Below are positions 39,024 through 56,597 of a stretch of 64,000 bases of DNA, in pieces. The DNA is taken from the NCBI GenBank assembly GCA_964612465.1, contig CAZTDF010000001.1:2660-66659 (forward strand). Reading direction: 5' to 3'. Below the pieces are notes generated by a model, which saw only the letters and a program-made list of their open reading frames with translations, had not been told where the DNA came from and searched no databases. A program made the translations under genes and the position numbers. This stretch comes from an uncultured Pirellulales bacterium (GTDB taxonomy: Bacteria; Planctomycetota; Phycisphaerae; Sedimentisphaerales; Anaerobacaceae). The number at the start of each line of letters is the position of its first letter. Positions within the stretch are counted from its first letter, which is position 1.

Positions 39024-39047
39024 CCAGCAAGGACTGCTGGAGTTTTT
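39024..39047 (+). terminator. Terminator-like hairpin 1 (CCAGCA-AGGAC-TGCTGG followed by AGTTTTT)
   Basis: 6-bp GC-containing stem, 5-nt loop and a short T-run, read directly. Confidence 0.4.
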
Positions 39048-39089
39048 AATACTCCCCGGGGTGTGGCAGGAAAGGTTAGAAAGATATAA

Positions 39090-39130
39090 CCCAGCTGGTT
39101 ATGCAAATGGATAGCCGACTGGGTTTTTTT
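39090..39130 (+). terminator. Rho-independent terminator-like hairpin 2 followed by T7
   Basis: CCCAGCTGG ... CCGACTGGG stem (5+3 bp with an internal mismatch) followed by TTTTTTT at 39124-39130. It ends 35 nt upstream of the first small ORF of the cluster. Confidence 0.5.
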
Positions 39131-39164
39131 AATAGAGAAAAATCAACAGAGAAAGGATTTAGTG

Positions 39165-39320
39165 ATGGCAGTAATAGGGTTGGCTATATTGGGTGTACTT
39201 TTAGGAGCAGCAGGAATGCAGTTTCTTCGTTCAAGTAAGCCGGAACTGGTGGAAAAGGCCGAAGATGGCATAAAGCGATTTTGGAATTCAATGCCTTTTA
39301 CGAAATCGGATGACAAGTAA
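39165..39320 (+). CDS. Small membrane-anchored protein (51 aa), below the ORF-track cut-off
   Basis: ATG 39165 preceded by GAAAGGA. MAVIGLAILGVLLGAAGMQFLRSSKPELVEKAEDGIKRFWNSMPFTKSDDK, stop TAA 39318-39320. Same architecture as the next ORF: an N-terminal Gly-rich TM helix plus a charged helix. Confidence 0.5.
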   Translation: MAVIGLAILGVLLGAAGMQFLRSSKPELVEKAEDGIKRFWNSMPFTKSDDK

Positions 39321-39377
39321 GAAAACAAAAGCCAAATAAAGCAAAACAATTTTGTGTTGACAAGGAAAGGAAATGCC

Positions 39378-39569
39378 ATGCTTAAGAGTTTAGGAATTCT
39401 GATAGGCGGAGTATTCGTCGGTGCTGTAAGTGTAGAAGTTGTTCGCAGGAAGTGTCCGGATGCACTGGACGATCTGTATGTAAAAATCCGTGAAGTAGCC
39501 TCTGAAGTAAAGGAGGCTTTCAAAAATGGTTACGAAAAAGCCGGTCAACCAAAACCGGCTGCCGCTTGA
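39378..39569 (+). CDS. Small membrane-anchored protein (63 aa)
   Basis: ATG 39378 with AAGGAAAGGAAA upstream (the track ORF is open from 39354). MLKSLGILIGGVFVGAVSVEVVRRKCPDALDDLYVKIREVASEVKEAFKNGYEKAGQPKPAAA. Confidence 0.55.
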   Translation: MLKSLGILIGGVFVGAVSVEVVRRKCPDALDDLYVKIREVASEVKEAFKNGYEKAGQPKPAAA

Positions 39570-39683
39570 AGAGCGAGGAATCTATAAAGTTTGAAGAATC
39601 CGGCCTGCAGTTTATTGGCCGTGGTGACTATTGTGGATATTGTTTAAAAGAAAATCTCAGGCTGGAAAAGAAAGGCACCGAGA

Positions 39684-40016
39684 ATGGACAACCATAAATC
39701 AGAGCTTTTGGGAACCGTGGAGACTGTATCTAAATTTGCGGGCACTTTGGCGGGAAAGGTGGTGGTTCGCAGCAGGGAAATCAGCGATTGTGTCAAAAAT
39801 ATGATGACAGAAAAGCTAGAACCCAAACCAAAGCCATCCACCAAGGCAACCGAATCCATAAAGAGCCAGACAAAAAAGAAACTTGCTGAGTTGGAAAAGG
39901 AAAAACCAGCAGCTAAGCAAGACAAGTTGGAAGAAAAACCGGAGAAACTTAAACCGGCGGTTACCAGAGCAAAAAAGACAAGCGTCAAGCCCAAGGGTAA
40001 GATAGACAGGAATTGA
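39684..40016 (+). CDS. Lys-rich hypothetical protein sharing an N-terminal motif with the coiled-coil/HEAT protein
   Basis: MDNHKSELLGTVETVSKFAGTLAGKVVV resembles MDNEKQYLEFVGNASERAGALAGKVAS of ORF 41605. Followed by a low-complexity K/E/P tail. Confidence 0.55.
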   Translation: MDNHKSELLGTVETVSKFAGTLAGKVVVRSREISDCVKNMMTEKLEPKPKPSTKATESIKSQTKKKLAELEKEKPAAKQDKLEEKPEKLKPAVTRAKKTSVKPKGKIDRN

Positions 40017-40111
40017 TTAATAAACCAAGGTTCATCTAAGCTGTTCCTTAAAGACATCATTTTAGGAAAAGAACAATTCGGCCGGTCTCGCCTGAATGGG
40101 CGCATGTAGAT

Positions 40112-41578
40112 ATGACCATATTTGACTATTTAATATTCGCTTTGTATATGGCAGGTGTTTTAACAGTTGGTCTTTATCATTATACTCGTAACAAGAATAT
40201 CGAAGATTATTACGTCGGCAGCCGGTCAATAGGGTCTTCTTATGTTGGGCTTTCAATTGTTGCTACGGATGTCGGAGGGGGCTTTTCCATTGGTTTGGGC
40301 GGCCTTGGTTTTGTGATGGGACTTGCAGGAAGCTGGCTTTTGTTTACCGGTCTGATCGGAGCATGGCTAAGTGCCGTATTTATTATTCCACGAATCAAGA
40401 AAATTGATGCAAAATATAAATTCATGACCTACCCCGATTTCCTTCGGTACAGATATAACGATGAAGTAGCCTTAGTCGCCGCGATAATTTCCGGCATTGC
40501 ATATCTTGGTTTTGCCGGTGTTCAAATGCTCGCCGGTGCCAAGTTGGCTTCCGTGACAATCATCCAGAACAATCCTTTTGGAGTTGAGCCAATAACATTT
40601 GCATTGGTTTTTATGGCGGTTATTACCATAACTTACACGGTTGTCGGCGGCCTTAAGGCGGTCATTTATACCGATGCCGTTCAATGGGTACTGCTGCTTG
40701 GCGGACTGCTCATTACGATCCCTGTAGCGTTGTATAAAATCGGAGGCATGGATGCCCTCAGACAGAAACTGCCGCCGGAATATTTTTCTCTTTCAAACAT
40801 TTCGCCGGCAACATTTATTAATTGGATGCTAACGATTATTCCCGCCTGGCTGATCGGCAATACGATATACCAGCGAATGTATGCTTGCAAAGATGAGTAT
40901 GAGGCCAAACGCGCATGGTATATTGCAGGTTTTCTTGAGTATCCGGTTATTGCATTTGCCGGTGCATTTCTTGGTATGTGTGCCCGTGTTGTCGCTCCTG
41001 GCGCCGAGCCGGAAATGGCAATGCCGATACTTATTCGCGATGTTCTGCCGGCAGGCGTAACTGGGATAGTCATCGTGGCATATTTTTCAGCGATAATGTC
41101 AACAGCGGACAGTTGCCTTATGGCGTCTTCCGGCAACTTCGCGACTGATATTATAGAACGCTATTTTTTTCGCAGAATTTCAACTAAAGCATCGATTCGT
41201 TTGTCGATGTTGATAACTCTTATTATCGGCACTCTTTCGGTTGTTATGGCCGCCCAGTTCACTTCGGTTCTACATGCCGCTCTCTATACATATGCCTTTA
41301 TGGTTTCAGGGCTGTTTGTGCCGACCCTTGGGGCTTATTTCTGGGAGAAGGGCAGTTGCTCCGGTGCTATGGCTGGCATGCTTGCCGGAGGAATAACCAC
41401 AGTTTTGTTGTTAACCAATACCCTTGTTCTTCCGGAAAAACTCGAATCTTTAGGTTTGTATGATGGTTTGTACGGCATAGCCTGTTCCACTGTAGCGTTC
41501 GTCGGCGTGTCATTACTTTTTCCGGATACAACAACTGATTTTGGGGATTTCGCTGTTGCTCAGAGCAACGCAGTATGA
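40112..41578 (+). CDS. Sodium:solute symporter family (SSF) transporter
   Basis: 488 aa and about 13 TM helices. N-terminal SSF-type strings [36 protein letters not shown], plus [17 protein letters not shown]. Confidence 0.8.
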
Positions 41579-41604
41579 TTCATTGTAAATTATAGGTATT
41601 AACG

Positions 41605-43728
41605 ATGGATAATGAAAAACAGTATTTAGAGTTTGTTGGGAATGCATCCGAACGTGCAGGTGCCCTTGCCGGCAAGGTGGCAAGTATTAGCAATAAAATC
41701 GCGAGTCGTGCAACCGGAAGTATCTCAGCGGGAAAAGAAATGCTTGGCTTAGCTGACGAAAAGGTCAAACACAAATCTGAAAAGAAGTCGGACAATACCA
41801 AAACTTCTATACTCAAATCCGACCTTGCCGCAGTCCAACGAAAGTTGACTAACATGGAAAAAACACAATCAAAGCTCGAATCACAGATCAAGAAACTGAA
41901 AACAGAGAATCACTCATTAGTATCCCAGATGGATCAAATGCGAAGTGAACTGAGTGAGACGAAATCCCGCGAAAGTGCGGTAAGGGCACGAGCAGCAGCA
42001 CTGGAATCGGAGCTTGATGATATTAGAAGCCAACTCGAAGAAACACAGAGCAAACCTGCAAAGACAACTGCTGTGGGAGTTGGCCGAAGTAAGCGGGTAG
42101 CCGAGTTGGAATCTGAGCTTGCTGCAACTCAGTGTGAATTGGAAGAGACGCGAAAGAAAGCTGAGCAGGCTCAATCTGAGTTTGCATCGCAACTCGAGGC
42201 TATACAGGTGGAAAACAAATCCTTGAGTTCTGATCTGGAAAAAACTAAAAGTAAAGCAAACCAAGATCAGGCTGACCTCAAGTCTCAAATAAGTAACCTT
42301 CAATCGGAAAATAATTCTTTGAAGTCTGAGCTGGAAAACCAGCGAACTGGGGAAAATAAGATGCTGAATTTAGAAGAGGAATTAAAAACACGGGCAGCCC
42401 AGTTAGAAGCTGACCTTGCCGCAACGCAGAGTGAATTGGCTGAAGCACAAAATCAGGCTGAAAAAGATCAAAATGATATTGCATCGCAACTCAAAGATAT
42501 AAAGGTTGAAAAAGAATCCCTGATTTCGGATTTGGAAAAAACACAGAATAAAGTTAATGAGATAACTTATCGAGAAGAACAAGTGAGCAAACAAGCGGCT
42601 AAGTTAGAATCAGAACTTGCCGCGACACAACAGGAACTGGCCGAAACACAGAATCAGGCTGAATATTCCCAAACTGAACTTATAAAACAACTTCAGAACC
42701 TGCAGGCAGAGAATAAATCTTTGATTTCTGAGCTTAACCAGGCTCGCAAAAAGGCTGACGATGCAGGAATACGAGCCGATTTGATTGAGTCAAAGATAGC
42801 TACATTGGAATCTAATGTCAGCGATGCTCACCTTAAGTCAGAAGAAGAATCAGGTATAGACATCACTTTACCACAAACAGATTATCAGGATGAACCTGCT
42901 GTTGTACCGACTGTGGAAGAAATCAAACCTTTAATTGAATCTGATGTTGTTCAGGACGAGCTCATAAATGCAGACATTGAAAATATTGAAGTGCCGGAAC
43001 CGGAGCCGGAACCGATACTTGAGTCTGATACTGAGATAGATGTTGAAAAAATAGAACCTGAGCTGCTGCCGGAGGTTGAGTTAACAGAGCCAGTGAAAGT
43101 GACAATCGAGGATGTGCAGGCATCTGATTTTAAAAATGAGGCGGAAAGAATAATCTTTACAAAAGCTCTTTCTGATTTTGCCAGCGCCGATACAGCAATC
43201 CGTGTGGATGCAGCTAAAACAATCGGCGGCATTTCTCATGAACTGTCAGCCCGGATCATTGTTGCTCATATAGCCGATGAAAAGTCAGCGGCGGTACGTC
43301 AGGAATGTATCAAGGCATTGTTAACACTTGAAATGGCTGAAGGACTAAGTGCTGTTGAAAGTGCTTTGACAGACGAGACTGCTTCTGTACGTTTAGCTGC
43401 TGTGTGGGGGATATATCGCTTGGCTGGGATCAAGAGTCTGCCGAAACTTTTAGCGATGTTATCTGACGGAGACGTAAGTGTTCGGCGAAGAGCTGTTACA
43501 TGTATCGGCTGGTTAGGCGGACAACTCAAGACCATCGGCGACTCCCGACTTCGTCGAGTTATCTCGGCCTTGATTGAGTGTTTGAACGACTCTGCTGAAT
43601 CAATGAGGAAAGCTACCCTTGATGCCTTACAAGCTGTCACCGGTAAAACTATTTCAATAGGTAAGAGTTCACCCGAGTTTCTGATTGACCAATGGCGTAT
43701 TTGGTGGAAAGAGGAGCTTCTAAGCTAA
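41605..43728 (+). CDS. Large coiled-coil protein with an acidic linker and C-terminal HEAT (PBS-lyase type) repeats
   Basis: About 400 aa of heptad-rich sequence with four copies of the motif LE[SA][ED]L[AD][AD][TI][QR].[EQ]L.E[TA][QR]. Acidic E/P/D linker (VPEPEPEPILESDTEIDVEKIEPELLPEVE). HEAT-like repeats (AIRVDAAKTIGGI, AAVRQECIKALLTL, ASVRLAAVWGIYRL, VSVRRRAVTCIGWLG). Confidence 0.75.
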   Translation: MDNEKQYLEFVGNASERAGALAGKVASISNKIASRATGSISAGKEMLGLADEKVKHKSEKKSDNTKTSILKSDLAAVQRKLTNMEKTQSKLESQIKKLKTENHSLVSQMDQMRSELSETKSRESAVRARAAALESELDDIRSQLEETQSKPAKTTAVGVGRSKRVAELESELAATQCELEETRKKAEQAQSEFASQLEAIQVENKSLSSDLEKTKSKANQDQADLKSQISNLQSENNSLKSELENQRTGENKMLNLEEELKTRAAQLEADLAATQSELAEAQNQAEKDQNDIASQLKDIKVEKESLISDLEKTQNKVNEITYREEQVSKQAAKLESELAATQQELAETQNQAEYSQTELIKQLQNLQAENKSLISELNQARKKADDAGIRADLIESKIATLESNVSDAHLKSEEESGIDITLPQTDYQDEPAVVPTVEEIKPLIESDVVQDELINADIENIEVPEPEPEPILESDTEIDVEKIEPELLPEVELTEPVKVTIEDVQASDFKNEAERIIFTKALSDFASADTAIRVDAAKTIGGISHELSARIIVAHIADEKSAAVRQECIKALLTLEMAEGLSAVESALTDETASVRLAAVWGIYRLAGIKSLPKLLAMLSDGDVSVRRRAVTCIGWLGGQLKTIGDSRLRRVISALIECLNDSAESMRKATLDALQAVTGKTISIGKSSPEFLIDQWRIWWKEELLS

Positions 43729-43734
43729 ACAAAA

Positions 43735-44130
43735 ATGAAGCAACTTGAGAAAAGAAAAAAGACACTTGCCTATCAGGTGCTAAATCTGGAGGGTAAAGCA
43801 TCGCAGATAAACCAGCTATGTGTTGAGTTAGTTAAGTCAATAGGAATCTGCGAAGCTTTTAATGAGTTGTTATCCGACTTATTGGGTTATTTACAATTTA
43901 CCAACACACCGGAGTTTGCCTTTGAGACAGAACTGATGAAGGCTCGCAAGGCCATACATTTTCTACGTAGCCAGACAGAAAACATCCAGGCAAAACTTGG
44001 AAATGCTGCTTCCCTGACAGTTGATATAGGTCTTCATCTTGAATGGTTGCGGGCTGTTAATAAACATCTTTTGGCAATTAAATTTCGCCTTGAAAGTGAG
44101 ATAACAATTTTTAACGTTAGAGAATTTTGA
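43735..44130 (+). CDS. Hypothetical helical protein (131 aa)
   Basis: ORF 6 nt after the previous stop and 4 nt before etfB. No recognisable motif. Confidence 0.5.
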   Translation: MKQLEKRKKTLAYQVLNLEGKASQINQLCVELVKSIGICEAFNELLSDLLGYLQFTNTPEFAFETELMKARKAIHFLRSQTENIQAKLGNAASLTVDIGLHLEWLRAVNKHLLAIKFRLESEITIFNVREF

Positions 44131-44134: not shown

Positions 44135-44923
44135 ATGATGGATATAATTGTTTGTATTAAACAGGTTCCCGACACCCTTGAGGTAAATATTAACAGGGAT
44201 ACCAATACACTTATTCGCGAAGGCGTAGATAGTGTCATAAATCCTTTTGATTTATATGCTCTCGAAGAGGGTCTGCGTCTCAAGGAACAATATGGCGGAA
44301 TGGTGACAGTTTTATCTATGGGGCCGCCTCAGGCAGTTGAGACTTTACGGCAGGCTTTGAGCTTAGGAGCGGATAATGCTGTTTTGCTTAGCGATATCGG
44401 TTTTGCGGGTTCCGACACACTGGCTACTTCTTATACATTGGCCAAAGCGGTGAAAAAGATAGGCCGCTTCGATTTGGTTTTTTGCGGCAGACAAGCCGTC
44501 GATGGCGATACCGCACACGTTGGGCCTTCACTGGCGGAAAAATTGGGTGTTGGTCATGTCTGTTGTGTTATGAAGATAAGTGAAGTGGGTGATGGCAATA
44601 TGACTGTGGAGCGTATGACCGAAGAAGGTATTGAACGGATAAAGCTTTCACTTCCGGCACTGATTACGGTTTCCAAAGGGATTAACGAGCCGCGGTTTCC
44701 CTCATTGAAATGGAAAGTAAATGCAGCAAGGTCCGAGATTGAAGTCTGGTTTGCTCAGGATATCGGTGCGGACGAAAACAAAATTGGGTTGAAAGGCTCT
44801 CCCACAAGAGTTGTCAAAATGACTACCTCTCAACATAACAGACAAGGTCAGATTCTGGAAGGTTCGACTGCCGAACAGGTAACGGATTTGGTGTCTAAAC
44901 TCCATCAGGCAGAAATATTGTGA
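44135..44923 (+). CDS. etfB: Electron transfer flavoprotein beta subunit (EtfB/FixA)
   Basis: MMDIIVCIKQVPDT... N-terminus. LVFCGRQAVDGDTAHVGP and GINEPRFPSLK strings typical of EtfB. Confidence 0.85.
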   Translation: MMDIIVCIKQVPDTLEVNINRDTNTLIREGVDSVINPFDLYALEEGLRLKEQYGGMVTVLSMGPPQAVETLRQALSLGADNAVLLSDIGFAGSDTLATSYTLAKAVKKIGRFDLVFCGRQAVDGDTAHVGPSLAEKLGVGHVCCVMKISEVGDGNMTVERMTEEGIERIKLSLPALITVSKGINEPRFPSLKWKVNAARSEIEVWFAQDIGADENKIGLKGSPTRVVKMTTSQHNRQGQILEGSTAEQVTDLVSKLHQAEIL

Positions 44924-44934
44924 AGGAGCACAAG

Positions 44935-46194
44935 ATGGGTATACGTATTATTGAGGAGAACTGTAAGGGCTGCAAACTTTGTGTTGCTGCGTGTCCTTTC
45001 GGTGCCATTACCATTACAGAAAAGCTGGCCCGGATTGATATAGCTAAATGCAATCTTTGCGGAGCATGTGTAGATGCCTGTAAAAAGTTCGCAGCTATTG
45101 AGTTGATTCGCGAAGAGACACCGATTATTGACAAGACTCGATATCGAGGTGTTTGGGTATTTGCCGAGCAGAGAGAAGGTCAAATCGCCAATGTTACGCT
45201 TGAGCTTCTCTGTGAGGGCAGGAAATTAGCCGACAAGTTAGGTGAACCTCTTTGTGCGATTTTGTTAGGAGAGGCGGTTGCAAAGGTTGCTCGCGATTTG
45301 GTCTGTTTCGGTGCCGACAAGGTTTATCTGGCTCAGTCGCCGCAATTGGCGGTGTTTATCGAAGAGGCCTTTACAGAAGTAATAACCGGACTGATTAAAG
45401 AGCATAAGCCAAACATTGTTTTACTTGGCGCGACAGCTATCGGGCGTTCATTAGCTCCGAGAGTAGCCAGCCGACTGGAGACCGGATTAACCGCGGACTG
45501 TACAGGCCTTGAGATAGACACTAAAACTAAAAATCTGTTGCAGACAAGGCCGGCCTTTGGCGGCAATCTGATGGCTACTATAGTTTGCCCGAACCACCGT
45601 CCGCAGATGGCAAGTGTGCGTCCGAAAGTTTTCAAACCTGCCCAGCGAGATCAGATGCGTATCGGGAAAATCATCGGATATAATTATAAAGATTATTGCT
45701 TAACTCAAAGAGCCCAACTGCTTGCGGTGGTTAAAGGGGTTGCCGAAGCAGTTAATATAGCTGAAGCTGATGTTATAGTTGCTGGCGGTCGAGGTCTGGG
45801 ATGTGCCGAAAACTTCAAAATTATTGAACGATTGGCGGATGTACTGGACGGTGCAGCAGGAGCTTCCCGTGCGGTTGTAGATGCAGGATGGGTTCCTTAC
45901 GCTCGTCAGATAGGACAAACGGGCAAGACAGTGCGTCCAAAGCTTTATATTGCCTGTGGTATCAGCGGTGCCATTCAGCACCTTGTTGGGATGCAGTCTT
46001 CGGAAACAATCGTAGCTATTAACAAAGACCCAAAGGCGCTGATTTTCAATGTGGCTGACTACTGTATTGTCGGGGATGCACTTGAAGTAGTTCCGGCTTT
46101 AATCAGAGAAGTAGAAAAGATACAACCCCGGGAGCAAGCCGAGCCTGTTGTAACGGATAGCAAATTGGAACATCAGTTTGCTTTGGGCGGTTAA
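44935..46194 (+). CDS. etfA: Electron transfer flavoprotein alpha subunit (EtfA/FixB) with an N-terminal 2x[4Fe-4S] ferredoxin domain
   Basis: Ferredoxin motifs CKGCKLCVAACP and CNLCGACVDAC. The EtfA core has VVAGGRGLG and LYIACGISGAIQHLVGM. ATG 44935 has AAGGAG 6 nt upstream; the track ORF opens at GTG 44920. Confidence 0.85.
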   Translation: MGIRIIEENCKGCKLCVAACPFGAITITEKLARIDIAKCNLCGACVDACKKFAAIELIREETPIIDKTRYRGVWVFAEQREGQIANVTLELLCEGRKLADKLGEPLCAILLGEAVAKVARDLVCFGADKVYLAQSPQLAVFIEEAFTEVITGLIKEHKPNIVLLGATAIGRSLAPRVASRLETGLTADCTGLEIDTKTKNLLQTRPAFGGNLMATIVCPNHRPQMASVRPKVFKPAQRDQMRIGKIIGYNYKDYCLTQRAQLLAVVKGVAEAVNIAEADVIVAGGRGLGCAENFKIIERLADVLDGAAGASRAVVDAGWVPYARQIGQTGKTVRPKLYIACGISGAIQHLVGMQSSETIVAINKDPKALIFNVADYCIVGDALEVVPALIREVEKIQPREQAEPVVTDSKLEHQFALGG

Positions 46195-46237: not shown

Positions 46238-46852
46238 GTGCTAAAAGAAACCATAACTAAAAATAAGATCGAGTTGCGGAAGGATTGTCTGACAACGACT
46301 GAACTTGCAAAACTCTGCGGTGTTTCTCGTTTTACTATTATCAATTGGGTTAACCGAGGCAAAATTAGAACAATGAAAACTGTCGGAGGCCATTGCAGGA
46401 TTCCGGTATCCGAAGCAATCGCTTTTTATGAGACTTTTCATGAAGAAAAGACTGGCTTTATATCTGAATCATTGTGCCATTGCTGGGAATATCCACAAAA
46501 GGCCAAGTGCAATAAAGAGTGTAAAGACTGCCTGCTATATAAAAGCCGGATTAATTACTGCTTCGTGGTGGTACGCGAATTTGGCAAAGAAGTGGTCCAT
46601 TGTAAAGGTGATTGTTTGAATTGTGATTATTTTGAAGAGTTTTTCAGTTCTTACAGCAAAATCGAGCAGCTAAACGAGACGGAAGATGGCGAAAGTAAAA
46701 AAAGAGCCAAAGACAAGAAAAGCTTTCTGTATAGTGTCGTATACGGTGTTGGGCGCGGCGTCCAGGAAGTAAAGGAAAGAGTCACGGATATTAAAGAGGT
46801 GTTTGGAGGCAGAGGCTCTCGAACCAAACAGATGGAAGATAGCGATGTCTAA
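46238..46852 (+). CDS. HTH (excisionase/MerR type) + 8-Cys domain transcription factor; short paralog of 36906..38372
   Basis: TTTELAKLCGVSRFTIINWVNRGKIRTMKTVGGHCRIPVSEAIAFY, then CHCWEYPQKAKCNKECKDCLLYKSRINYCFVVVREFGKEVVHCKGDCLNCDYFEEFF. Collinear with the N-terminal 150 aa of the NTase-HEPN fusion. Confidence 0.75.
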   Translation: MLKETITKNKIELRKDCLTTTELAKLCGVSRFTIINWVNRGKIRTMKTVGGHCRIPVSEAIAFYETFHEEKTGFISESLCHCWEYPQKAKCNKECKDCLLYKSRINYCFVVVREFGKEVVHCKGDCLNCDYFEEFFSSYSKIEQLNETEDGESKKRAKDKKSFLYSVVYGVGRGVQEVKERVTDIKEVFGGRGSRTKQMEDSDV

Positions 46853-48158
46853 GTGTGAAGTGGTTATTGTTGGGGCGGGGCCGGCGGGAATTGCCTGTGG
46901 GTATGTCCTTGCCAAAGCAGGTGTGGATGTTGTCATTCTCGAAAGGGGACAGTATCCCGGTGCTAAAAATATGTTTGGTGGGACATTTTTTGCCGACCAG
47001 ATGTGCGAATTGATTCCTGAATTTTATACCGAAGCACCGGTCGAAAGATTTATAGCCAAAAAGCGCTATGCATTGCTGATAAATAATTCAGAAGTTTCTT
47101 TGAATATCGACGCAGAAGAACATAAAAAGTCGCCCTACAATCATTCATTTATCGTCAGACGTTCTGTTTTTGATAAATGGTTTGCTAAAAAGGCAGAAGA
47201 ACAGGGAGCTACAATTATCTGCGGCACCGCGGTAACAGATTTTGTATGGGACGGCAAAAGAATTGTCGGTGTAACTGCCGGTACTGCCGATGACCAGGAC
47301 AATGTCTTGTTAGCCGATGTGGTGGTCTGTGCTGAGGGGGCCAATTCCATGCTCTCGGAAAAGACGGGGCTTCGCAACAGGTTATCGATGCGTGCTCGAT
47401 GTATTTCTGTTAAGGAAGTGATAGAACTGGGGAAAGACGTAATTGACGAAAGATTCGGATTAACAGCCAGAGAAGGTGCGGCATACGAGTATTTTGCCGA
47501 TGCCACACCTGGTATGTTAGGTGATGGTTTTATCTATACTAACATGAATTCGTTGTCGGTAGGTGTCGGCGTTATTATCAGTGAGTTATATGGACGCAAA
47601 AACCCTCCTTCGCCAAACCAGCTGCTGGACAGATTTAAGAGTCATCCGTGTATTTGGCCTTTAATAAAGGGCGGCAAAACGCTGGAATATTCAGCTCACA
47701 TGATTCCGATGGACGGCTATAAAAATCTACCGAGCTTTTATACCGATGGTCTTATGCTGGTCGGCGATGCTGCTGGATTTGTTAATAACAGCATATGCCA
47801 CGAGGGTGTGAACATGGCTATGGCTTCAGGGATGATGGCTGCTGAGACAATATTGGAAAACAGGGGCCAAAGGCGATACGATACCAAGGCACTTCGGCAG
47901 TACGAACGACGACTGAAGAATTCTTTTGTCCTTCAAAATATGAAAAGCAGCAGGGATTTCATCGACATACTGCGTACGCACAAAGAGCTGCTCAACGACT
48001 ATCCACACCTTATAAAAGAGGTGATAACGAAATATTTTGAGGTGAGTGATGTCCCCAAAAGTGCCGTTAAGCGAGATATTGTTCGTATGATACGCGGCCG
48101 AGTAAGTTTAGTTAAAGCTGCCAAGACAGTCATGGCATTGGTGAAGGGCGGAATCTGA
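46845..48158 (+). CDS. fixC: FixC/EtfC-type FAD-dependent ETF:quinone oxidoreductase-like protein
   Basis: Rossmann motif VVIVGAGPAGIACGYVLAKAG immediately after ATG 46845. This start overlaps the regulator stop by 8 nt; the track start at 46803 was rejected. LVGDAAGFVN near the C-terminus. Confidence 0.85.
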   Translation: MSKCEVVIVGAGPAGIACGYVLAKAGVDVVILERGQYPGAKNMFGGTFFADQMCELIPEFYTEAPVERFIAKKRYALLINNSEVSLNIDAEEHKKSPYNHSFIVRRSVFDKWFAKKAEEQGATIICGTAVTDFVWDGKRIVGVTAGTADDQDNVLLADVVVCAEGANSMLSEKTGLRNRLSMRARCISVKEVIELGKDVIDERFGLTAREGAAYEYFADATPGMLGDGFIYTNMNSLSVGVGVIISELYGRKNPPSPNQLLDRFKSHPCIWPLIKGGKTLEYSAHMIPMDGYKNLPSFYTDGLMLVGDAAGFVNNSICHEGVNMAMASGMMAAETILENRGQRRYDTKALRQYERRLKNSFVLQNMKSSRDFIDILRTHKELLNDYPHLIKEVITKYFEVSDVPKSAVKRDIVRMIRGRVSLVKAAKTVMALVKGGI

Positions 48159-48159: not shown

Positions 48160-48453
48160 ATGGCGACGGCAGAAAAAAACCAACTTAGTCTGAATGATAA
48201 GCTTTTTACTGTTCGCAGAAAGCCGCTCAAAGAATCACATATCAGGCTCGATAAACAGTTGTGTAAAAAGTGTCTCAATAGAATATGCACATATATATGC
48301 CCGGCAGAGGTTTATATTTGGAGTGAATCCAAAAACGAAATTGATATAAGATATGAAAACTGTCTCGAATGCGGCGCCTGTCGCGTAGCGTGTGACAGCA
48401 TAGAATGGGCAAATCCTGTATGGGGAACAGGGATTGCATATAAGAACAGTTAA
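48160..48453 (+). CDS. fixX: FixX/EtfX ferredoxin-like protein
   Basis: 97 aa. CKKCLNRICTYICPAEV and CLECGACRVACD. Starts 1 nt after fixC. Confidence 0.85.
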   Translation: MATAEKNQLSLNDKLFTVRRKPLKESHIRLDKQLCKKCLNRICTYICPAEVYIWSESKNEIDIRYENCLECGACRVACDSIEWANPVWGTGIAYKNS

Positions 48454-48486: not shown

Positions 48487-49179
48487 ATGCTGACAGGACT
48501 TTATACTATATCCGGCTTTGCGGTTGTTTTTTTTGTTGTTTACGGCTTATACGCTCATATCAAGGTTAATCGGCTATATGAAAGATATTCGAAGGAACCT
48601 GTTAAAAAAGGGATTACAGGCAGTCGTCTTGCCAGGACTATGCTCAATTCCGCTGGTTTCAACGAGGTCGTTATCGAAGAGGTTGGGGGTGCTCTCAGTG
48701 ACCATTATGACCCACGCCAAAATGTTGTCAGGCTTTCCCGGCATGTTGCGAGAAACTCCTCTATTGCTGCGATAGGAATCGCCGCACATGAAGCGTCGCA
48801 CGCAATACAGCACGGCAACAACTATCCGCCGGCAAAGTTCAGAAATAATATCGCCCCAATTGTGGAAAAGGCAGGATACTTCATATTGCCGCTTTTGTTT
48901 TTAGGGATAGTGTTGTCCAGGGTCGCCCTGGCATCGTTTTTTATAAACATAGCGTTGCTTTTATTCCTTGCCATAGTCGTTTTTTACCTTGTTACTCTGC
49001 CTGTAGAATTGGAAGCCTCAGCCAGAGCTATGCGATATATCAAAGAGAACAATGTAGCCGACGAGAAGGAGCTTGAAGGTGTCAAAAAGGTGCTCAATGC
49101 CGCAGCACTTACCTACATAATTGCGACGGCCCTTGCCATAGTGCAGTTCCTCAGCCTCCTGGGGATGAAAAGGAAATGA
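48487..49179 (+). CDS. Membrane zinc metallopeptidase (YugP / Zn_peptidase_2-like)
   Basis: HExxH motif in AAHEASHAIQH. N-terminal TM helix and two C-terminal TM helices. 230 aa. Confidence 0.75.
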   Translation: MLTGLYTISGFAVVFFVVYGLYAHIKVNRLYERYSKEPVKKGITGSRLARTMLNSAGFNEVVIEEVGGALSDHYDPRQNVVRLSRHVARNSSIAAIGIAAHEASHAIQHGNNYPPAKFRNNIAPIVEKAGYFILPLLFLGIVLSRVALASFFINIALLLFLAIVVFYLVTLPVELEASARAMRYIKENNVADEKELEGVKKVLNAAALTYIIATALAIVQFLSLLGMKRK

Positions 49180-49269
49180 TAAAACAATGAATCAAGATCA
49201 AAGTCTATCATTCCCGCGAACGCAGGAATCTATTATATTTCAATAAAGTTTAAAGAAAGGAGTTATCGT

Positions 49270-49401
49270 ATGACACTCGGACAATTATTACTTTTAGTGC
49301 TGATCGTTGCAGTATTCTGGATCGCAAGCAAACTGAAAAAACATGACCAAAAAATCGATAAACTGGAAGGCAAGCTTGAAGGCAAGAACGAAAATGAATA
49401 G
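49270..49401 (+). CDS. Small single-TM protein (43 aa), below the ORF-track cut-off
   Basis: Strong RBS AAGGAG 7 nt upstream of ATG 49270. MTLGQLLLLVLIVAVFWIASKLKKHDQKIDKLEGKLEGKNENE, stop TAG 49399-49401. Confidence 0.5.
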   Translation: MTLGQLLLLVLIVAVFWIASKLKKHDQKIDKLEGKLEGKNENE

Positions 49402-49412
49402 GGGTAAAAGCC

Positions 49413-50408
49413 TTGAGGGTTGATAAAAAACAGGTCGGTAAAAGTTCGAAGCGATACTACTGGTTGGCTTTTGTTATCGGCGGGATGACGGCTGCTTTAA
49501 TGGGTTGTTTAGTATATTCGTACGTAACCAAAGGTAACCACAGTCTTTTGAGTAGTGCTGTCGGTAATCCCAAGGCGGATGAAGCGAACGTTCGGACTGA
49601 CCCGACGGAGGAGAAGTCTGTTTCGCCATCCGCTTTTCTCGGAGTAGAGATTATGTCTGTGAATGCGGTTATTGCTGAGCAGTTTGGCCTGTCGAATCCG
49701 TGCGGTGTTCTTGTAAACAGCGTTGTTGACGGCTCACCAGCTCAAGAGTCGGGACTTCGAAGAAGTGATGTTATTCTATCCCTGAATAGCATTGCAGTTG
49801 AGGACGTAAACAGCTTCAGAAGTATTATGAGCACTCTAAATCCCGGTGACAATGTGAAAATTGTGTACATAAGAAACAGGCAAAAAGATACAGTCTATGC
49901 CACATTAGCCGACTCATCCGCCGTTCTGAATGTCGCGAAAGATACAAGTGGTTCTGACTGGGGTGTATTGCTGTCTGTTCTCAATTCGGATTTGCGCAGT
50001 TCGCTGCGTATTCCGGCCAATATCGATGGGATTGTGATTCTGTCGGTAACACCAGGTGGCCTGGCGGATCAGGCTGGTTTGCTGCCCGGCGATGTGATTA
50101 CCGGGATTAACAATACGCCAATTGCAGATATGGGCGACTTCTTCGGTGCATTGTCGTCAGACAAAGACGACAAAGTACTTCTGGATGTTTACAGTCAGGG
50201 CACATTACGTTATGTGGCGTTGGATTCATCCGGTGTCGTCACAGCGGTTGCCAGTACACAGACAAGTCTGCTGGACAGAATACTTTCGGCATTTACTGAC
50301 AACGATAACGTCATACTTACCGAACATACAAATGAAGAGGATGATTATGAAAAGCCGGTATGCAAACGGCTCGAGGAATCAGGGGAACGTTATGAAGATG
50401 AAGACTGA
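49413..50408 (+). CDS. Membrane-anchored double-PDZ protein (the PDZ half of a split HtrA; MamP/MamE-C-terminal-like but without heme motifs)
   Basis: TTG start, TM helix YYWLAFVIGGMTAALMGCLVY. PDZ1: GVLVNSVVDGSPAQESGLRRSDVILSLN. PDZ2: GIVILSVTPGGLADQAGLLPGDVITGIN. No CXXCH. Confidence 0.75.
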   Translation: MRVDKKQVGKSSKRYYWLAFVIGGMTAALMGCLVYSYVTKGNHSLLSSAVGNPKADEANVRTDPTEEKSVSPSAFLGVEIMSVNAVIAEQFGLSNPCGVLVNSVVDGSPAQESGLRRSDVILSLNSIAVEDVNSFRSIMSTLNPGDNVKIVYIRNRQKDTVYATLADSSAVLNVAKDTSGSDWGVLLSVLNSDLRSSLRIPANIDGIVILSVTPGGLADQAGLLPGDVITGINNTPIADMGDFFGALSSDKDDKVLLDVYSQGTLRYVALDSSGVVTAVASTQTSLLDRILSAFTDNDNVILTEHTNEEDDYEKPVCKRLEESGERYEDED

Positions 50409-50423
50409 TAAAAAGGTGTGCAG

Positions 50424-51359
50424 ATGAATTTCAAAAAATGGCTTTCGGAAAATATCTTGTGGGTGCTCGTAGCACTTGTCGTAGTTAACTTTCTCATAGT
50501 GTACTGGGGTACTATCAATCTGGGAATCTATGGCACGCGCAGCTCCCTCCTGAGGTGGGACCTGCTGCAGCGCAAGAAACCGCTCTTACAGGAGCAGACC
50601 ACAGCAGCAAATGTAGAAGTTGATACGCTTACAATGCCGGGTCAGCGTCCGAGTACGGTTGCAAGTAATAATCTTGTATTAACATGTGCGGATGATGATT
50701 TGGCCTCTGCCTTTGCGTCTGTCAGGCCTGCGGTTGTCAATATAACTGCGGACAAGGTAACACAGAGAAGAGGCGGGCCGGCTTTGGCAAGTTCAGTTGC
50801 TTTCGATGACCCGTCCATACAATTCGTTGAAGAGGCATCTCTTGGGTCAGGAATTATCGTTGACCACAGGGGTTATATCGTGACCAATGCTCATGTAGTA
50901 GCCAATGCCACAAGTATCAAGGTTGTAACCTTCAGTTCGGCAAGAGTGGTTTATCCAGCCGTAATCATTCGCAAAGACCTGGAAAATGATATTGCCATTT
51001 TGAAGATCGAACTCGACTCGTCTATGCCTACTGTGATTCTCGGAGACTCCGATATGATAAAAGTGGCTGATATAGTTCTGACCGTAGGCTCGCCTTTCGG
51101 GTTAGAGCAAACCGTTACGGCAGGGATTATAAGCGATGATTCAAGAAACCTTGTCATAGACGGCCAAACCTATGATGATATGATTCAGACAGATGCGGCT
51201 ATTAACAGGGGCAATTCCGGCGGACCGCTTATCAACGTAAAAGGCGAGGTCATAGGCATAAACACAGCCATCTACGCTCCTACCGGCGTATTCACAGGTG
51301 TTGGATTTGCGATTCCTATTAACAAGGTAAAACCAATTGTCAAAGAAACAATCAGGTAA
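50424..51359 (+). CDS. Trypsin-like (HtrA/DegP-type) serine protease domain protein with an intact triad and no PDZ (MamE-N-terminal-like)
   Basis: TM anchor ILWVLVALVVVNFLIVYW. His in YIVTNAHVV, Asp in ENDIAILKI, Ser in NRGNSGGPLIN. GTG 50418 is an alternative start. Confidence 0.85.
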   Translation: MNFKKWLSENILWVLVALVVVNFLIVYWGTINLGIYGTRSSLLRWDLLQRKKPLLQEQTTAANVEVDTLTMPGQRPSTVASNNLVLTCADDDLASAFASVRPAVVNITADKVTQRRGGPALASSVAFDDPSIQFVEEASLGSGIIVDHRGYIVTNAHVVANATSIKVVTFSSARVVYPAVIIRKDLENDIAILKIELDSSMPTVILGDSDMIKVADIVLTVGSPFGLEQTVTAGIISDDSRNLVIDGQTYDDMIQTDAAINRGNSGGPLINVKGEVIGINTAIYAPTGVFTGVGFAIPINKVKPIVKETIR

Positions 51360-51364
51360 AAAAT

Positions 51365-51571
51365 ATGTGGCGAACGATAATAGTTGTAATTGTTGTATTG
51401 ATTATTTTCCTGTTTATTGGCGACAATATGCACACAACACGGGTAAATATGCCTTTCACAAACGGCTTTGAGATAAGAACGGTTTTTCTTTTGGCCTTGA
51501 GCTTTATTGTCGGTTACGGCACGGCGTCCCTCGTAGGTTTTATAAAAAACTCCAAAAATAACAAAAAGTGA
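51365..51571 (+). CDS. Small 2-TM protein with a basic tail (LapA/DUF1049-type; MamL-like by architecture)
   Basis: MWRTIIVVIVVLIIFLFIGDNMHTTRVNMPF...FLLALSFIVGYGTASLVGFIKNSKNNKK. Two TM helices and a Lys-rich C-terminus. Lies between the protease and CDF genes. Confidence 0.55.
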   Translation: MWRTIIVVIVVLIIFLFIGDNMHTTRVNMPFTNGFEIRTVFLLALSFIVGYGTASLVGFIKNSKNNKK

Positions 51572-51582
51572 ATTAATTGCAA

Positions 51583-52455
51583 ATGAGCACAATTAAATTA
51601 TATCCAAATCCTGACGATTCAGTTCAACCATTTCTGGCAGGGCTGCTGGCTAATCTGGCGATTGCCATTCTGAAGTTTGGAATAGCCTTACTGGGCGGCA
51701 GCAGGCTGGTTTTGATGGACGGCCTTTTCTCCTTTATGGCGGCAGTGGCTTTTTTGATTCCATGGCAAGCACAGGTTATAGAAAAAAAGCCTCACGATGA
51801 GAGATACCCGTATGGCTTAGGCAAGGTACTGTTTATAAGTATGGCAGTGATCGGCTTTCTTGGTCTGGTTATTTCTGTTCATATGATTTACTACAGCCTG
51901 GTGGTCATGGCTGGACTACAAATGCATGGTTTATACACCCTGGCGATAATGGTCACGATTATATCTGTAATAACCAACGAGGTTCTTTATCGATATCTTG
52001 CGGAGAAAACCAAAAGTTGCTCAAGTACAGTGTTGGCCATGTCCGGGCGTTACAATCGCATCGGTGCGTGGATTTCGTCTTTTGTCCTGTTATTTTTAAT
52101 TCTTTCTTATCTCGGTGGTGCGTATCTTGAGAGGATTGGTGTCGCAATCATTTCAATCGTTGTGTTTTTTATCAGCCTTCGAATGCTTTTTGTGGGCTTT
52201 AGCGGGATTATGGACAAGGTTCCATCACCCAAAATCCTGGAGCGAATAAGGGTATGCACGCAAAAGGTAAGCGAGGAAAAAGAGATTATAAACGTAAAGG
52301 CCAGGTACGTTGGAACACTGCTGCATATTGATATGTGGATAAGAGTAGATGATGAGCTCAGTATGGAGCAGGCCGATAGAATTGCCCGCCGCGTCAAAGT
52401 ACAGTTAATGGAGAAAATTCCTTTCGCAAGAGAAGTGAATGTTATTATCGCATGA
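51583..52455 (+). CDS. Cation diffusion facilitator (CDF) family protein with a degenerate transport site (MamM-like position)
   Basis: CDF landmarks KKPHDERYPYGLGKV and a C-terminal domain (NVKARYVGTLLHIDMWIRVD). TM2 reads LVLMDGLFSFMAAV and TM5 reads LAMSGRYNRIGAW, so the usual HxxxD/[HD]xxxD pairs are missing. TTG 51577 is an alternative start. Confidence 0.7.
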   Translation: MSTIKLYPNPDDSVQPFLAGLLANLAIAILKFGIALLGGSRLVLMDGLFSFMAAVAFLIPWQAQVIEKKPHDERYPYGLGKVLFISMAVIGFLGLVISVHMIYYSLVVMAGLQMHGLYTLAIMVTIISVITNEVLYRYLAEKTKSCSSTVLAMSGRYNRIGAWISSFVLLFLILSYLGGAYLERIGVAIISIVVFFISLRMLFVGFSGIMDKVPSPKILERIRVCTQKVSEEKEIINVKARYVGTLLHIDMWIRVDDELSMEQADRIARRVKVQLMEKIPFAREVNVIIA

Positions 52456-52934
52456 TAACGACTAAGAAAAAAGTTTTTATTTTAGTAGTTGTTTTGGCTT
52501 TAGCTGTCTTATTAATAGCTGGAAGATTGGTAGTATGCGCCAGGACTGCAGGGGTGGCCCAATCTGCTGACAGTTTTGTTTTTAACTTGCCCAATGAGGC
52601 CGGTTTCTACAATATTACCGTCGTTGAATTGAAGACCAGGATAGACAACAAATCCGATAAGAATTTTATAGTCGTCGATATCAGAGATAACGCATCTTAT
52701 GCCCAGGGTCATATACCCGGGGCGATAAACATACCTTTAAATGAACTGGGCTACCGCGTATTCAGTCTGGATAAAACAAAGGACATAATCGTGTATTGCT
52801 TTACCGGCGTAACAAGCCAGGTTGCATGCCAGATACTTGTAAATGCCGGGTTTAAAGATGTGTATAACGTGATAGGCGGAATAAAAGCGTGGAATTATGC
52901 TGTTGAAACAAGCGATGGCAGAGTAGATATTTAA
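52452..52934 (+). CDS. Membrane-anchored rhodanese-domain protein (sulfurtransferase-like)
   Basis: N-terminal TM helix VFILVVVLALAVLLIA. Rhodanese strings VVDIRDNASYAQGHIPGAINIP and active-site loop IIVYCFTGVTSQVA. ATGA overlap with the preceding CDF gene. Confidence 0.8.
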   Translation: MITTKKKVFILVVVLALAVLLIAGRLVVCARTAGVAQSADSFVFNLPNEAGFYNITVVELKTRIDNKSDKNFIVVDIRDNASYAQGHIPGAINIPLNELGYRVFSLDKTKDIIVYCFTGVTSQVACQILVNAGFKDVYNVIGGIKAWNYAVETSDGRVDI

Positions 52935-52970
52935 GAAAAATGAAGAAAAATTTAGTAGAAAGGAGCAAAA

Positions 52971-53168
52971 ATGTTGCACATTGTTGTAGGAATCATCGCA
53001 ATCGTGATTGGACTGTGGGGGATAATGGGCAACTGGTATATGTTCAAAGATATACTGGTTACTATCGTGCCGCTGGCAGTGCTTTTATTTGGAATAGTGG
53101 CAGTATTAGCCGGTATTCGCAAAATGAAAGCAAACTTGGCTGCCAAAGAGAAAAGTGAGGAGGCATAA
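52971..53168 (+). CDS. Small 2-TM protein, MamI-like
   Basis: Strong RBS AAAGGAG 5 nt upstream. MLHIVVGIIAIVIGLWGIMGNWYMFKDILVTIVPLAVLLFGIVAVLAGIRKMK.... The length, hairpin topology and IGLWG...W...VP...G pattern match my recollection of MamI. Sits directly upstream of the MamA-like gene. Confidence 0.55.
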   Translation: MLHIVVGIIAIVIGLWGIMGNWYMFKDILVTIVPLAVLLFGIVAVLAGIRKMKANLAAKEKSEEA

Positions 53169-53171
53169 AAG

Positions 53172-53834
53172 ATGACAAAGAAGAGCGAAACGAAAGAGCC
53201 CAAAAAGGATCAGGCGGTGCCGCTGACCCTTCGGACGCAGAGTTTTTTCGGCAAACTCAGAGGGTGCCTTGATGGTCTTGTTAATGGCTACTGTAATTTA
53301 ACACATATTGAAGCTGTTGAGGCAAAGGAGCTGGTCTTCAAAAAAGCTGCTGCATTGATGGAGCGTGGTCAGTACGGAAAGGCCATTGACCACTACAACA
53401 AATTGATTGGCATGGGTAAAGAAGAAGCGAATATTTATTACAACCTCGGTATCTGTTGTGAGCGGGAAGGTATGGATGAGGAGGCACAGGAGGCTTATAA
53501 GAAGGCATCTGAGATGGACAAATCCCATACGGATGCTGTCTATAGATTAGGACTGTTGGCCATAAAAAACGATGATTCTGAGGCGGCAGTTAAATATCTC
53601 AGTTCTCTTGCCCGCAAGGATAAAACGTCGTTCGACATTATGTATAACCTCGGTGTTGCCTATGACAAGCTCAAGAATTATGAAAAAGCGATAGAGAGCC
53701 TTATCAAGGCGACAAAAATTGAACCAAACTACTCCAAGGTTCACAAACGACTTGGTTACACCTATGAGGCAATGGGTAAGCGTGAAGAAGCTATGGAATG
53801 TTTCAAAAAGGCTATGGAGCTTGAAGAGATTTAG
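53172..53834 (+). CDS. mamA: TPR protein, MamA-like (220 aa)
   Basis: Five or more TPR units. The C-terminal stretch YNLGVAYDKLKNYEKAIESLIKATKIEPNYSKVHKRLGYTYEAMGKREEAMECFKKAMELEE aligns closely with the remembered Magnetospirillum MamA C-terminus (FRLGVALDNLGRFDEAIDSFKIALGLRPNEGKVHRAIAFSYEQMGRHEEALPHFKKANELDE). Its size equals MamA (about 217 aa). Confidence 0.7.
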   Translation: MTKKSETKEPKKDQAVPLTLRTQSFFGKLRGCLDGLVNGYCNLTHIEAVEAKELVFKKAAALMERGQYGKAIDHYNKLIGMGKEEANIYYNLGICCEREGMDEEAQEAYKKASEMDKSHTDAVYRLGLLAIKNDDSEAAVKYLSSLARKDKTSFDIMYNLGVAYDKLKNYEKAIESLIKATKIEPNYSKVHKRLGYTYEAMGKREEAMECFKKAMELEEI

Positions 53835-53845
53835 AAAGGTTCTTT

Positions 53846-54616: not shown

Positions 54617-54762
54617 AGGCAGCCTGAGTAAACAAAATAGAAAGTGATGTACCCTTGAAGGGTAATAAAATCCCGCGAGCGGAATTGTAAATTGTTGTAA
54701 AGTACCTTATCCGCGAACGAATGGGGGAATTCAATTTGGAGCACCATATAAAGGTCTGATCT

Positions 54763-55653: not shown

Positions 55654-55692
55654 ATACAGTTATCATACTTATCACATAACGAATTTAAAACT

Positions 55693-56595: not shown

Positions 56596-56597
56596 CT

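Follow-up and report, generated by a model that had tools for sequence, protein, structure and literature searches.

The HTH/Cys gene within the etfBA-fixCX module

A gene for a 204-aa protein with a helix-turn-helix (HTH) domain and a cysteine-rich (Cys) module, referred to here as the HTH/Cys gene, was analyzed in a 64,000-nt stretch of DNA from an uncultured Pirellulales bacterium (assembly GCA_964612465.1, contig CAZTDF010000001.1, positions 2,660 to 66,659); the whole of this stretch is called the window. An earlier note on the same DNA had placed the gene inside an etfB-etfA-fixC-fixX series, and annotation of the neighboring genes with Pfam and NCBIfam confirmed this. The window is a magnetosome gene cluster, and the etfBA-fixCX module is part of that cluster rather than a free-standing metabolic operon. 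The features of the module and of the HTH/Cys gene are as follows, with the evidence for each in brackets.

44135..44923, + strand: etfB (PF01012, E 1.1e-45)
44920..46194, + strand: etfA with an N-terminal 2x[4Fe-4S] ferredoxin domain (Fer4, ETF and ETF_alpha)
46238..46852, + strand: HTH/Cys gene, 204 aa (open reading frame (ORF) call and sequence; 232 homologues, the best 98% identical)
46289..46414, + strand: HTH_17 / excisionase-type winged helix-turn-helix, aa 18-59 (Pfam 41 bits, TIGR01764 34.8 bits)
46478..46633, + strand: Cys module, aa 81-132, with H81-C82-W-E, C91x3C95x2C98, C108 and C122x3C126x2C129-x-Y-F (invariant alignment columns; predicted helical)
46709..46777, + strand: conserved C-terminal motif KKxFLYxFxYGxGRGxxxxK, aa 158-180 (alignment conservation)
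46845..46852, + strand: 8-nt overlap ATGTCTAA (fixC start within the end of the HTH/Cys gene)
46845..48158, + strand: fixC, 437 aa from its ATG (NCBIfam PRK10015/FixC-like, 321 bits; ETFQO_UQ-bd)
48160..48453, + strand: fixX, ferredoxin-like (Fer4_ETF_QO and Fer4_9)

The HTH/Cys ORF begins with GTG, with AGGAGG located 12 nt upstream, and ends with TAA at 46850-46852, thereby overlapping the fixC ATG (46845-46847) by 8 nt. This overlap, which the earlier note had also described, was read directly in the sequence and is kept in orthologous loci at 77-96% identity (L001/L014, L008-L013 and L087; loci used for comparison are numbered with the prefix L). From the ATG at 46845 FixC is 437 aa long, which matches the length of the fixC gene calls in homologous loci. 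Between 43735 and 49179 the successive intergenic gaps and overlaps are 4, -4, 43, -8, 1 and 33 nt, and no terminator-like site was found between the genes of this interval. A consensus promoter and terminator scan of 38300-49500, in which counts were not above those of shuffled sequences, likewise gave no terminator within the etf-fix stretch, and the sole good sigma-70-like site in that scan was at 38637-38665. The window copy would be co-transcribed with etfBA and is probably translationally coupled to fixC, so that its dose would follow the Etf/Fix module.

The neighbors are clear homologues of EtfB, EtfA, FixC and FixX in the order usual for the bifurcating FixABCX/EtfABCX complexes and, as judged from their sequences, lie in one operon, as an EtfAB-FixCX module does. 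The module differs from those of the known complexes in its setting: it belongs to a magnetosome cluster, in which genes for a Zn peptidase and for Mam proteins come next. We know of no DNA-binding subunit, and of no fifth, Cys-rich subunit, in the FixABCX/EtfABCX complexes.

DNA-binding domain and cysteine module

The HTH was identified as a member of HTH_17 (PF12728, aa 18-59, E 2.4e-10, 41 bits against a cut-off of 27) and also matched TIGR01764 'excise', the excisionase family of DNA-binding domains, with 34.8 bits against a cut-off of 28.8. The scores with the MerR HTH model PF00376 (23.8 bits, cut-off 28.2) and with the BldC model NF033787 (29.5 bits, cut-off 77) were too low for membership. 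Taken with the searches for metal-binding motifs given below, the protein belongs to HTH_17 only, and not to MerR proper, BldC, SoxR, Fer4 or ZAS. The HTH is the best-conserved part of the protein, and its recognition region, TTxELAxxCGVSRFTIxNW, is invariant or nearly so among paralogues.

In the AlphaFold2 (AF2) model the HTH (aa 21-70) was predicted with a local distance difference test score (pLDDT) of 90-98. A Foldseek comparison of the model with the PDB indicated a MerR-like winged-helix fold, with BldC (6ama/6amk) as the top matches and RacA, SoxR and Xis following. The BldC matches had a probability of 1.0, a template-modeling (TM) score of 0.8-0.87 when normalized to the target and a root-mean-square deviation of 1.0-1.5 Å, at 31-33% identity across ~50 residues; the sequence match to 6amk had an E-value of 8e-4. 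Downstream of the HTH the model contains a single helix of ~15 residues (aa 57-71) and then the Cys module, without the long dimerization helix and the C-terminal effector pocket of classical MerR regulators. BldC of Streptomyces (PDB 6AMA, 6AMK) thus appears to share its DNA-binding fold with the HTH/Cys protein, but consists of the HTH alone (~68 aa), whereas in the 204-aa HTH/Cys protein a Cys module of 55 aa and then a basic tail follow; with its low score against the BldC model, this protein is not a member of the BldC family. On the strength of the domain matches and the modeled fold, it is likely that the HTH/Cys protein binds DNA.

The TIGR01764 match, the family name 'excisionase family DNA-binding protein' used in databases and the Xis proteins among the weaker Foldseek matches would each suit an excisionase (recombination directionality factor) of a mobile element, present here by chance. 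Two transposase genes, 33980-35176 (+ strand, DDE_Tnp_1) and 35275-36354 (- strand, rve/HTH_32), are also present between a large permease array and the magnetosome cluster. However, these are 10 kb away and both are absent from the fetched syntenic loci, no integrase is adjacent to the gene in the window or in any syntenic locus, the operon position of the gene is fixed across many metagenome-assembled genomes (MAGs), and excisionases have no counterpart of the Cys module and tail. The excisionase reading was rejected because no integrase was found and the place in the operon is fixed, and it is regarded as very improbable.

The Cys module follows the pattern H-C82-W-E-x6-C91-x3-C95-x2-C98-x9-C108-F-x12-C122-x3-C126-x2-C129-x-Y-F, and comprises two half-sites, each a single Cys followed by CxxxCxxC; for the family as a whole the half-site is C...[C/H]x(1-3)CxxC. 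All eight of these residues (C82, C91, C95, C98, C108, C122, C126 and C129) are invariant in 32 aligned family members, and the pattern is kept in the 232 homologues that were retrieved at E <= 1e-3 from 5.8 billion proteins, which argues against chance. Eight conserved cysteines had been described in the earlier note; the number holds, but the first Cys of the 'CHC' that it quoted (C80) is a ninth, non-conserved residue, and this position is Gly in most homologues and in a paralogue fused to nucleotidyltransferase (NTase) and HEPN domains.

No match to the Cys module was found among Pfam, NCBIfam and PDB sequences, even at E <= 10, and in the Foldseek comparison with the PDB only the HTH was matched. 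No paper describing the HTH/Cys protein was found in the searchable literature, although an earlier gene name is possible, as the subscription papers that define the mad genes are outside its reach. The family is therefore uncharacterized within these bounds, as the earlier note had supposed. A profile of the Cys module alone, searched against 1.84 billion representative proteins, returned 103 clusters at 50% identity. HTH_17 precedes the module in 84/100 of the relatives found in this way, and the module mostly starts at residue 65-90. These relatives retain seven of the cysteines, Cys91 being lost or replaced by a His two residues on; the module is present two- or threefold in some relatives, and others have an appended receiver-like or PAS domain. 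When a broad alignment of the module was used in a word-indexed search of proteins, there was a single match. In a first AlphaFold run, based on 32 close homologues, the module was unusable (pLDDT ~30-37); with a deep alignment that included the distant relatives it was predicted to be a small helical domain (pLDDT 73-82).

SoxR ([2Fe-2S]), Wbl/WhiB, Rrf2 proteins (IscR, NsrR) and ZAS anti-sigma factors such as RsrA follow the same logic as the HTH/Cys protein, in that a DNA- or sigma-binding part is joined to a small Cys-ligated metal site. The sites of SoxR, Wbl/WhiB, Rrf2 and ZAS proteins report redox, nitric oxide or iron status. The Cys spacing of the HTH/Cys protein (C-x8-C-x3-C-x2-C ... 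C-x13-C-x3-C-x2-C) is unlike that of Wbl, Rrf2 or SoxR, whose CX2CXCX5C motif is absent, none of the corresponding Pfam or NCBIfam models matched, and there are two four-ligand sites where these regulators have one. The half-site C...[C/H]xxxCxxC does share the spacing of the ZAS motif (HxxxCxxC in RsrA, which binds Zn), but the likeness is one of spacing only (CxxxCxxC twice), with no match to the Pfam ZAS model (zf-HC2) at E <= 10. Similarly, neither the protein nor the isolated module matched Fer4 at E <= 10, and a CxxCxxCxxxCP motif was not found in either.

Eight ligands in two groups of four would be compatible with two [4Fe-4S] clusters, while ZAS-like Zn-thiolate sites would fit equally well with the spacing CxxxCxxC, with the prediction of a helical fold and with the exchange of Cys for His. 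As the module is predicted to be helical with eight ligands (seven Cys plus a Cys or His in distant relatives), both Fe-S and Zn have to be considered, and the two appear about equally likely. A metal- or redox-sensing role for the module is possible, at slightly less than even odds.

Placement of the family in magnetosome gene clusters

The remainder of the magnetosome cluster lies on both sides of the etfBA-fixCX module, and a paralogue of the HTH/Cys gene is found upstream of it.

36906..38372, - strand: paralogue, HTH/Cys module with NTase (Polbeta) and HEPN domains, 488 aa (tblastn; Pfam)
39165..44130, + strand: upstream cluster genes, namely two small membrane ORFs, a 110-aa ORF, an SSF symporter, a coiled-coil/HEAT protein and a 131-aa ORF (annotation, synteny)
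48487..62070, + strand: downstream magnetosome genes, namely Zn peptidase, PDZ, MamE/O-like proteases, MamB/M-like CDFs, rhodanese, MamA, MamQ and PDZ + Nitro_FeMo-Co (Pfam, NCBIfam)

The downstream genes are tightly packed in the order Zn peptidase, double-PDZ protein, MamE/O-like protease, MamB/M-like CDF transporter, rhodanese, MamA and MamQ, after which there are two further MamB/M-like transporters, a 1121-aa PDZ + Nitro_FeMo-Co protein and another protease. In the window the NCBIfam E-values were 1.6e-43 for MamA, 2.5e-24 for MamQ, 6.9e-77 for MamB and 3e-61 for MamE, at scores under the NCBI equivalog cut-offs. MamI (PF26391) is present in the syntenic locus L001, and the core mam genes are clustered. 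The coiled-coil/HEAT protein upstream of the module is 707 aa long. The window proteins are 96-99% identical to contigs of MAGs named 'uncultured Pirellulales bacterium' (L008, L009), and the G+C content of the window, 49.5%, fits the 48-50% of Planctomycetes MAGs with putative greigite-type clusters (PMC7449369).

The series etfB-etfA-fixC-fixX followed by a Zn_peptidase_2 gene (44135-49179 in the window) is a syntenic and integral part of the Planctomycetota magnetosome cluster (L001, L008-L013, L020 and L035), and in the Omnitrophota cluster (L039), too, fixC-fixX precedes MamI and MamE. No paper on Etf/Fix genes in magnetosome clusters was found in the searchable literature, most subscription papers being outside its reach.

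A tblastn search of the window with the HTH/Cys protein gave one paralogue, the NTase-HEPN fusion at 36906-38372 (- strand), with 90/179 identities (50%, E 1e-58) over residues 14-187. The collinearity of the two proteins claimed in the earlier note was thus borne out over ~180 aa. The fusion is conserved beside cluster heads, where it is always divergent, and could be a toxin-antitoxin-like or signaling enzyme.

To survey the family more widely, genomic contexts were fetched for nine relatives, species-representative genomes were scanned, and the loci were annotated against the window proteins. Nearly all of the 232 relatives are 190-230 aa long, and those that are named come from Planctomycetota MAGs. 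Four placements were distinguished. The first is that of the window, between etfA and fixC, and was seen in 13 non-redundant cases. In the second, the gene is at the head of the same type of cluster and etfA is followed directly by fixC (L024, L025, L035/L036, L043 and L068). In the third, it is the first gene of a second type of cluster that lacks etf/fix and has the order HTH/Cys, MamA-like, MamQ, two MamI, MamE, MamO and MamB (L002, L005, L006, L032, L033 and many more in the metagenome scan). The fourth is the divergent fusion to NTase-HEPN beside a cluster head (the window, L009, L011, L015, L021 and L096). A single-cell genome (GCA_042569785.1) has both the first and the third placement, on two contigs and with a separate family member in each.

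More distant members extend this pattern. P0126, which has ~30% identity and comes from an Omnitrophota MAG, is encoded directly upstream of fixC-fixX-MamI-MamE; the HTH protein immediately before fixC-fixX in the Omnitrophota cluster has two Cys modules. P0145 (~30% identity; MAG of unknown phylum with the same cluster layout) heads a magnetosome cluster with haem-synthesis genes. Only two family contexts without mam genes in the locus were seen, one beside an Rrf2 gene (L003/L018) and one, of a distant relative, beside multihaem cytochromes (L040).

The earlier note had asked whether the family always accompanies etf/fix or Mam-like genes. The former are not a constant neighbor, while magnetosome clusters very nearly are. 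Because etfA and fixC are contiguous in some clusters and the family heads others that have no etf/fix genes, the family tracks magnetosome clusters: its constant partner is the magnetosome cluster, not Etf/Fix. From the loci compared, the association of the family with magnetosome clusters of uncultured Planctomycetota and Omnitrophota is very probable.

These placements also bear on whether the protein might be a feedback sensor specific to EtfAB-FixCX, reading the redox state of the complex and regulating it alone, or an additional Fe-S subunit that joins in electron transfer. The orthologues keep both the position of the gene and its 8-nt overlap with fixC, all 13 of the 13 copies between etfA and fixC keep the full ligand set, family members also directly precede fixC in L047, L037/L038 and the Omnitrophota locus L039, and eight cysteines could hold two [4Fe-4S] clusters, as in a ferredoxin. 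However, a device specific to the bifurcating flavoprotein complex, as proposed in the earlier note, is difficult to reconcile with the five sets of loci of the second placement, in which etfA and fixC are contiguous without an inserted gene, or with the paralogues that have all eight cysteines and head clusters without etf/fix. The earlier note had itself named absence of the gene from otherwise identical fix operons as evidence against its proposal. Such operons do exist, although in them the gene has moved to the cluster head and has not vanished. In addition, there is no ferredoxin-type motif or Fer4 match, and it is the HTH that is most conserved; a ferredoxin-like electron-carrier subunit was rejected for these two reasons. 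An Etf/Fix-specific role is therefore considered improbable for the family. For the orthologue group between etfA and fixC, a functional tie to Etf/Fix electron supply is plausible, given the likely co-transcription and coupling and the retention of the ligands in every copy, but such a tie does not define the family as a whole. The complete ligand sets of these copies and the two Cys modules of the HTH protein before fixC-fixX in the Omnitrophota cluster keep a redox role plausible.

Genes of the Rrf2 family (IscR/NsrR type) flank some members at the heads of clusters of the second type, type B (L002 7112-7558; L033 3022-3453 and 4867-5316), and another (L003 5896-6381) flanks a family copy that is not beside mam genes. 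In Magnetospirillum, NsrR is reported to regulate magnetosome genes directly (PMC11014258). The magnetosome cluster of L099, which is headed by a distant family member, has genes for cytochrome c assembly, glutamyl-tRNA reductase, two radical-SAM/SPASM proteins and NirD/L-like proteins at 1272-6205; this set, located before MamI and MamE, resembles an alternative haem pathway.

Cluster-head elements and a candidate regulatory role

Three conserved non-coding elements (E1, E2 and E3) were found at cluster heads, two of which are present in the window.

38785..38830, + strand: E3, a 16-nt core ACCGACGGGGACGGAG between short complementary arms (unique in the window; 32 distinct copies at cluster heads)
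38920..39139, + strand: E1, RNA-like, consisting of one long and one small hairpin and a terminator formed by a hairpin and a U-run (before the first cluster genes)

The core of E3 is nearly invariant, its arms read CTGYA/TRYRG, and GATAAT-like boxes follow it. It is found at the heads of both cluster types (L002, L005, L006, L009-L013, L024, L025, L027 and L041-L096), and its conservation exceeds that of the neighboring genes. E3 could be an operator or an RNA hairpin, for example in a leader. E2, TTTTGCAGAA-N~22-TTCTGCAAAA, is an inverted repeat with perfect 10-bp arms that was found in 18 loci (including L023, L032, L035, L041, L043, L044, L049, L050, L058, L068, L070, L074, L083, L093 and L098), usually between E1 and the family gene at the head. 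In L027 there is a compensatory change in both arms. E2 was not found in the window.

E1 is 170-220 nt long across its copies and often present as two tandem copies. A pattern scan of public metagenomes gave 58 loci, and in every informative one E1 is co-oriented with the cluster genes and 100-450 nt upstream of them. The first gene after E1 is a family member in ~27 loci and small ORFs, like those that open the window cluster, in ~24; in L047, E1 lies between etfA and the HTH/Cys gene. A covariance model identified 93 copies of E1 in loci L001-L098. In these, 94% of cells pair, compared with 29-47% when the partners were slid, and 11 pairs have compensatory changes, compared with 5.3 +/- 1.7 in shuffles. 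The pairing and the compensatory changes give modest but real support for an RNA structure. An Rfam scan of 38373-39700 gave no match to E1, the lone and meaningless match being to Ysr35 (23 bits, cut-off 428), and no paper describing the non-coding elements was found in the searchable literature. E1 is a candidate small RNA, or leader or attenuator, specific to these clusters, and all three elements are candidates for binding sites of the HTH/Cys family or for leader RNA.

Taken together, these observations suggest that the HTH/Cys protein is a transcription factor dedicated to the cluster and probably responsive to metal or redox state, a reading to which a probability of about 0.55 is assigned; that the family regulates transcription at all is, by a little, the more secure proposition. 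In this mechanism the HTH would bind conserved sites at the cluster heads, and the Cys module, with Fe-S clusters or redox-active Zn-thiolate sites, would couple DNA binding to the redox or iron-sulphur state of the cell. The magnetosome genes, and with them the Etf/Fix electron-transfer module, would thereby be expressed in tune with conditions in which mineral can form. The gene and its domains, the conserved ligands, the paralogy, the link to magnetosome clusters and the non-coding elements are observations, whereas we infer DNA binding in vivo, the bound sites, the bound metal and the sensing role from sequence. A more elaborate form of the proposal, held only tentatively, is that the HTH/Cys family, E3, the TTTTGCAGAA/TTCTGCAAAA repeat and E1 constitute a dedicated cluster-encoded circuit, in which Fe-S (or Zn-thiolate) sensing would couple the mam genes and the low-potential electron supply from Etf/Fix to redox and iron-sulphur conditions.

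Family members of reduced length are relevant here. Variants of ~140 aa, in which the HTH and the C-terminal motif are kept and the Cys module is gone save for a C...CxxC remnant, are common at cluster heads (L023-L025, L027, L028, L030 and many of L041-L093), and HTH-only versions of ~70-86 aa were also found (L026, L031). The HTH-only and Cys-poor variants co-occur in the same genomes, with up to three or four members per genome or locus (e.g. L015). In the tail, K160, Y165, Y169, G172 and K179 are conserved and the helix is basic.

It could be argued from these variants that the protein is an architectural or anchoring protein that does not sense anything. It would then bind DNA constitutively, as BldC, RacA and Xis do, or influence magnetosome size or number as MamR does; the Cys module would be a structural double Zn site for folding or oligomerization, and the basic C-terminal helix would tether the protein to a partner or to the membrane. 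The nearest structures, BldC and RacA, are effector-less MerR-like proteins, HTH-only and Cys-poor variants occur within the family, the C-terminal motif is retained where the Cys module has been lost, and the Cys/His exchange seen at one ligand is of a kind common among Zn sites. MamR provides a precedent: it is a small (~72 aa) HTH_17/excisionase-like protein of the Magnetospirillum mamAB operon (PMC3905215), and so shares both its Pfam family and its location in a magnetosome operon with the HTH/Cys protein, and in alphaproteobacteria it has a magnetosome size and number phenotype with no shown regulatory role (PMC3905215; PMC13452763). No HTH_17 protein other than MamR had been noted in magnetosome operons before. 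MamR differs in that it has no Cys module, lies between mamQ and mamB and belongs to another lineage; an unverified MamR sequence matched HTH_17 and gave no BLASTP alignment to the HTH/Cys protein, which is weak evidence. Against a purely architectural role, the family is located at the very head of clusters, beside conserved non-coding elements, which is the typical seat of autoregulated transcription factors, its distant relatives carry receiver-like or PAS domains, as signal-responsive regulators do, and Rrf2-type regulators sometimes adjoin its genes. An architectural or anchoring function is considered unlikely, although it ranks first among the alternatives, ahead of the Etf/Fix-specific sensor or subunit and then the stray excisionase.

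Several points weigh against the preferred reading of a transcription factor that responds to metal or redox state. In many of the paralogues at cluster heads most of the Cys module is gone while the HTH and tail remain, and the core function of the family would for that reason be independent of the module. Small proteins of the HTH_17 type, among them BldC, Xis, RacA and MamR, can serve as architectural or anchoring factors instead of responding to a ligand. The predicted structure of the Cys module reaches just the pLDDT given above, and did so only once distant relatives had been added, sequence does not discriminate Fe-S from Zn, and E3 may be a hairpin of a leader RNA instead of a DNA site. 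Finally, all of the organisms involved are uncultured, and the reading is drawn from their sequences.

The control of magnetosome clusters is known in outline only, from Magnetospirillum. There, it is exerted by global regulators encoded outside the cluster, namely Fur, OxyR, Crp and NsrR. To our knowledge, a cluster-encoded sensing regulator of the kind proposed here has not been described in any magnetotactic bacterium. The HTH/Cys protein combines a known DNA-binding fold with an undescribed Cys module, in a family linked to the gene cluster of an organelle. As a DNA-binding family that accompanies such clusters in at least two phyla, it offers an expressible protein, candidate sites and a candidate leader or small RNA as testable items. 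Clusters that carry their own Etf/Fix module hint at a need for low-potential electrons in mineral formation, and a built-in regulator with its cis-elements would bear directly on the transplantation of magnetosome clusters into other hosts.

Several other features of the window were recorded. A sodium:solute symporter gene (40112-41578, + strand) lies between the 110-aa ORF and the coiled-coil/HEAT gene, and among the syntenic loci it was seen only in the closest relatives (L008, L009 and L013). The 1121-aa protein (56598-59963, + strand) has two PDZ and two Nitro_FeMo-Co (dinitrogenase cofactor-binding) domains, and similar proteins are encoded in L020, L039 and L099. Upstream of the magnetosome cluster there is an unusually large array of eleven tandem paralogous genes (3501-31989, + strand) for apparent MacB-type permeases of 805-843 aa each; the three genes that were checked all have MacB_PCD and FtsX domains. 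An ABC ATPase gene is located mid-array (23680-24381). Before the array there are genes for a histidine kinase, an HlyD-type adaptor and another ATPase, and after it comes an outer-membrane factor gene (32001-33680).

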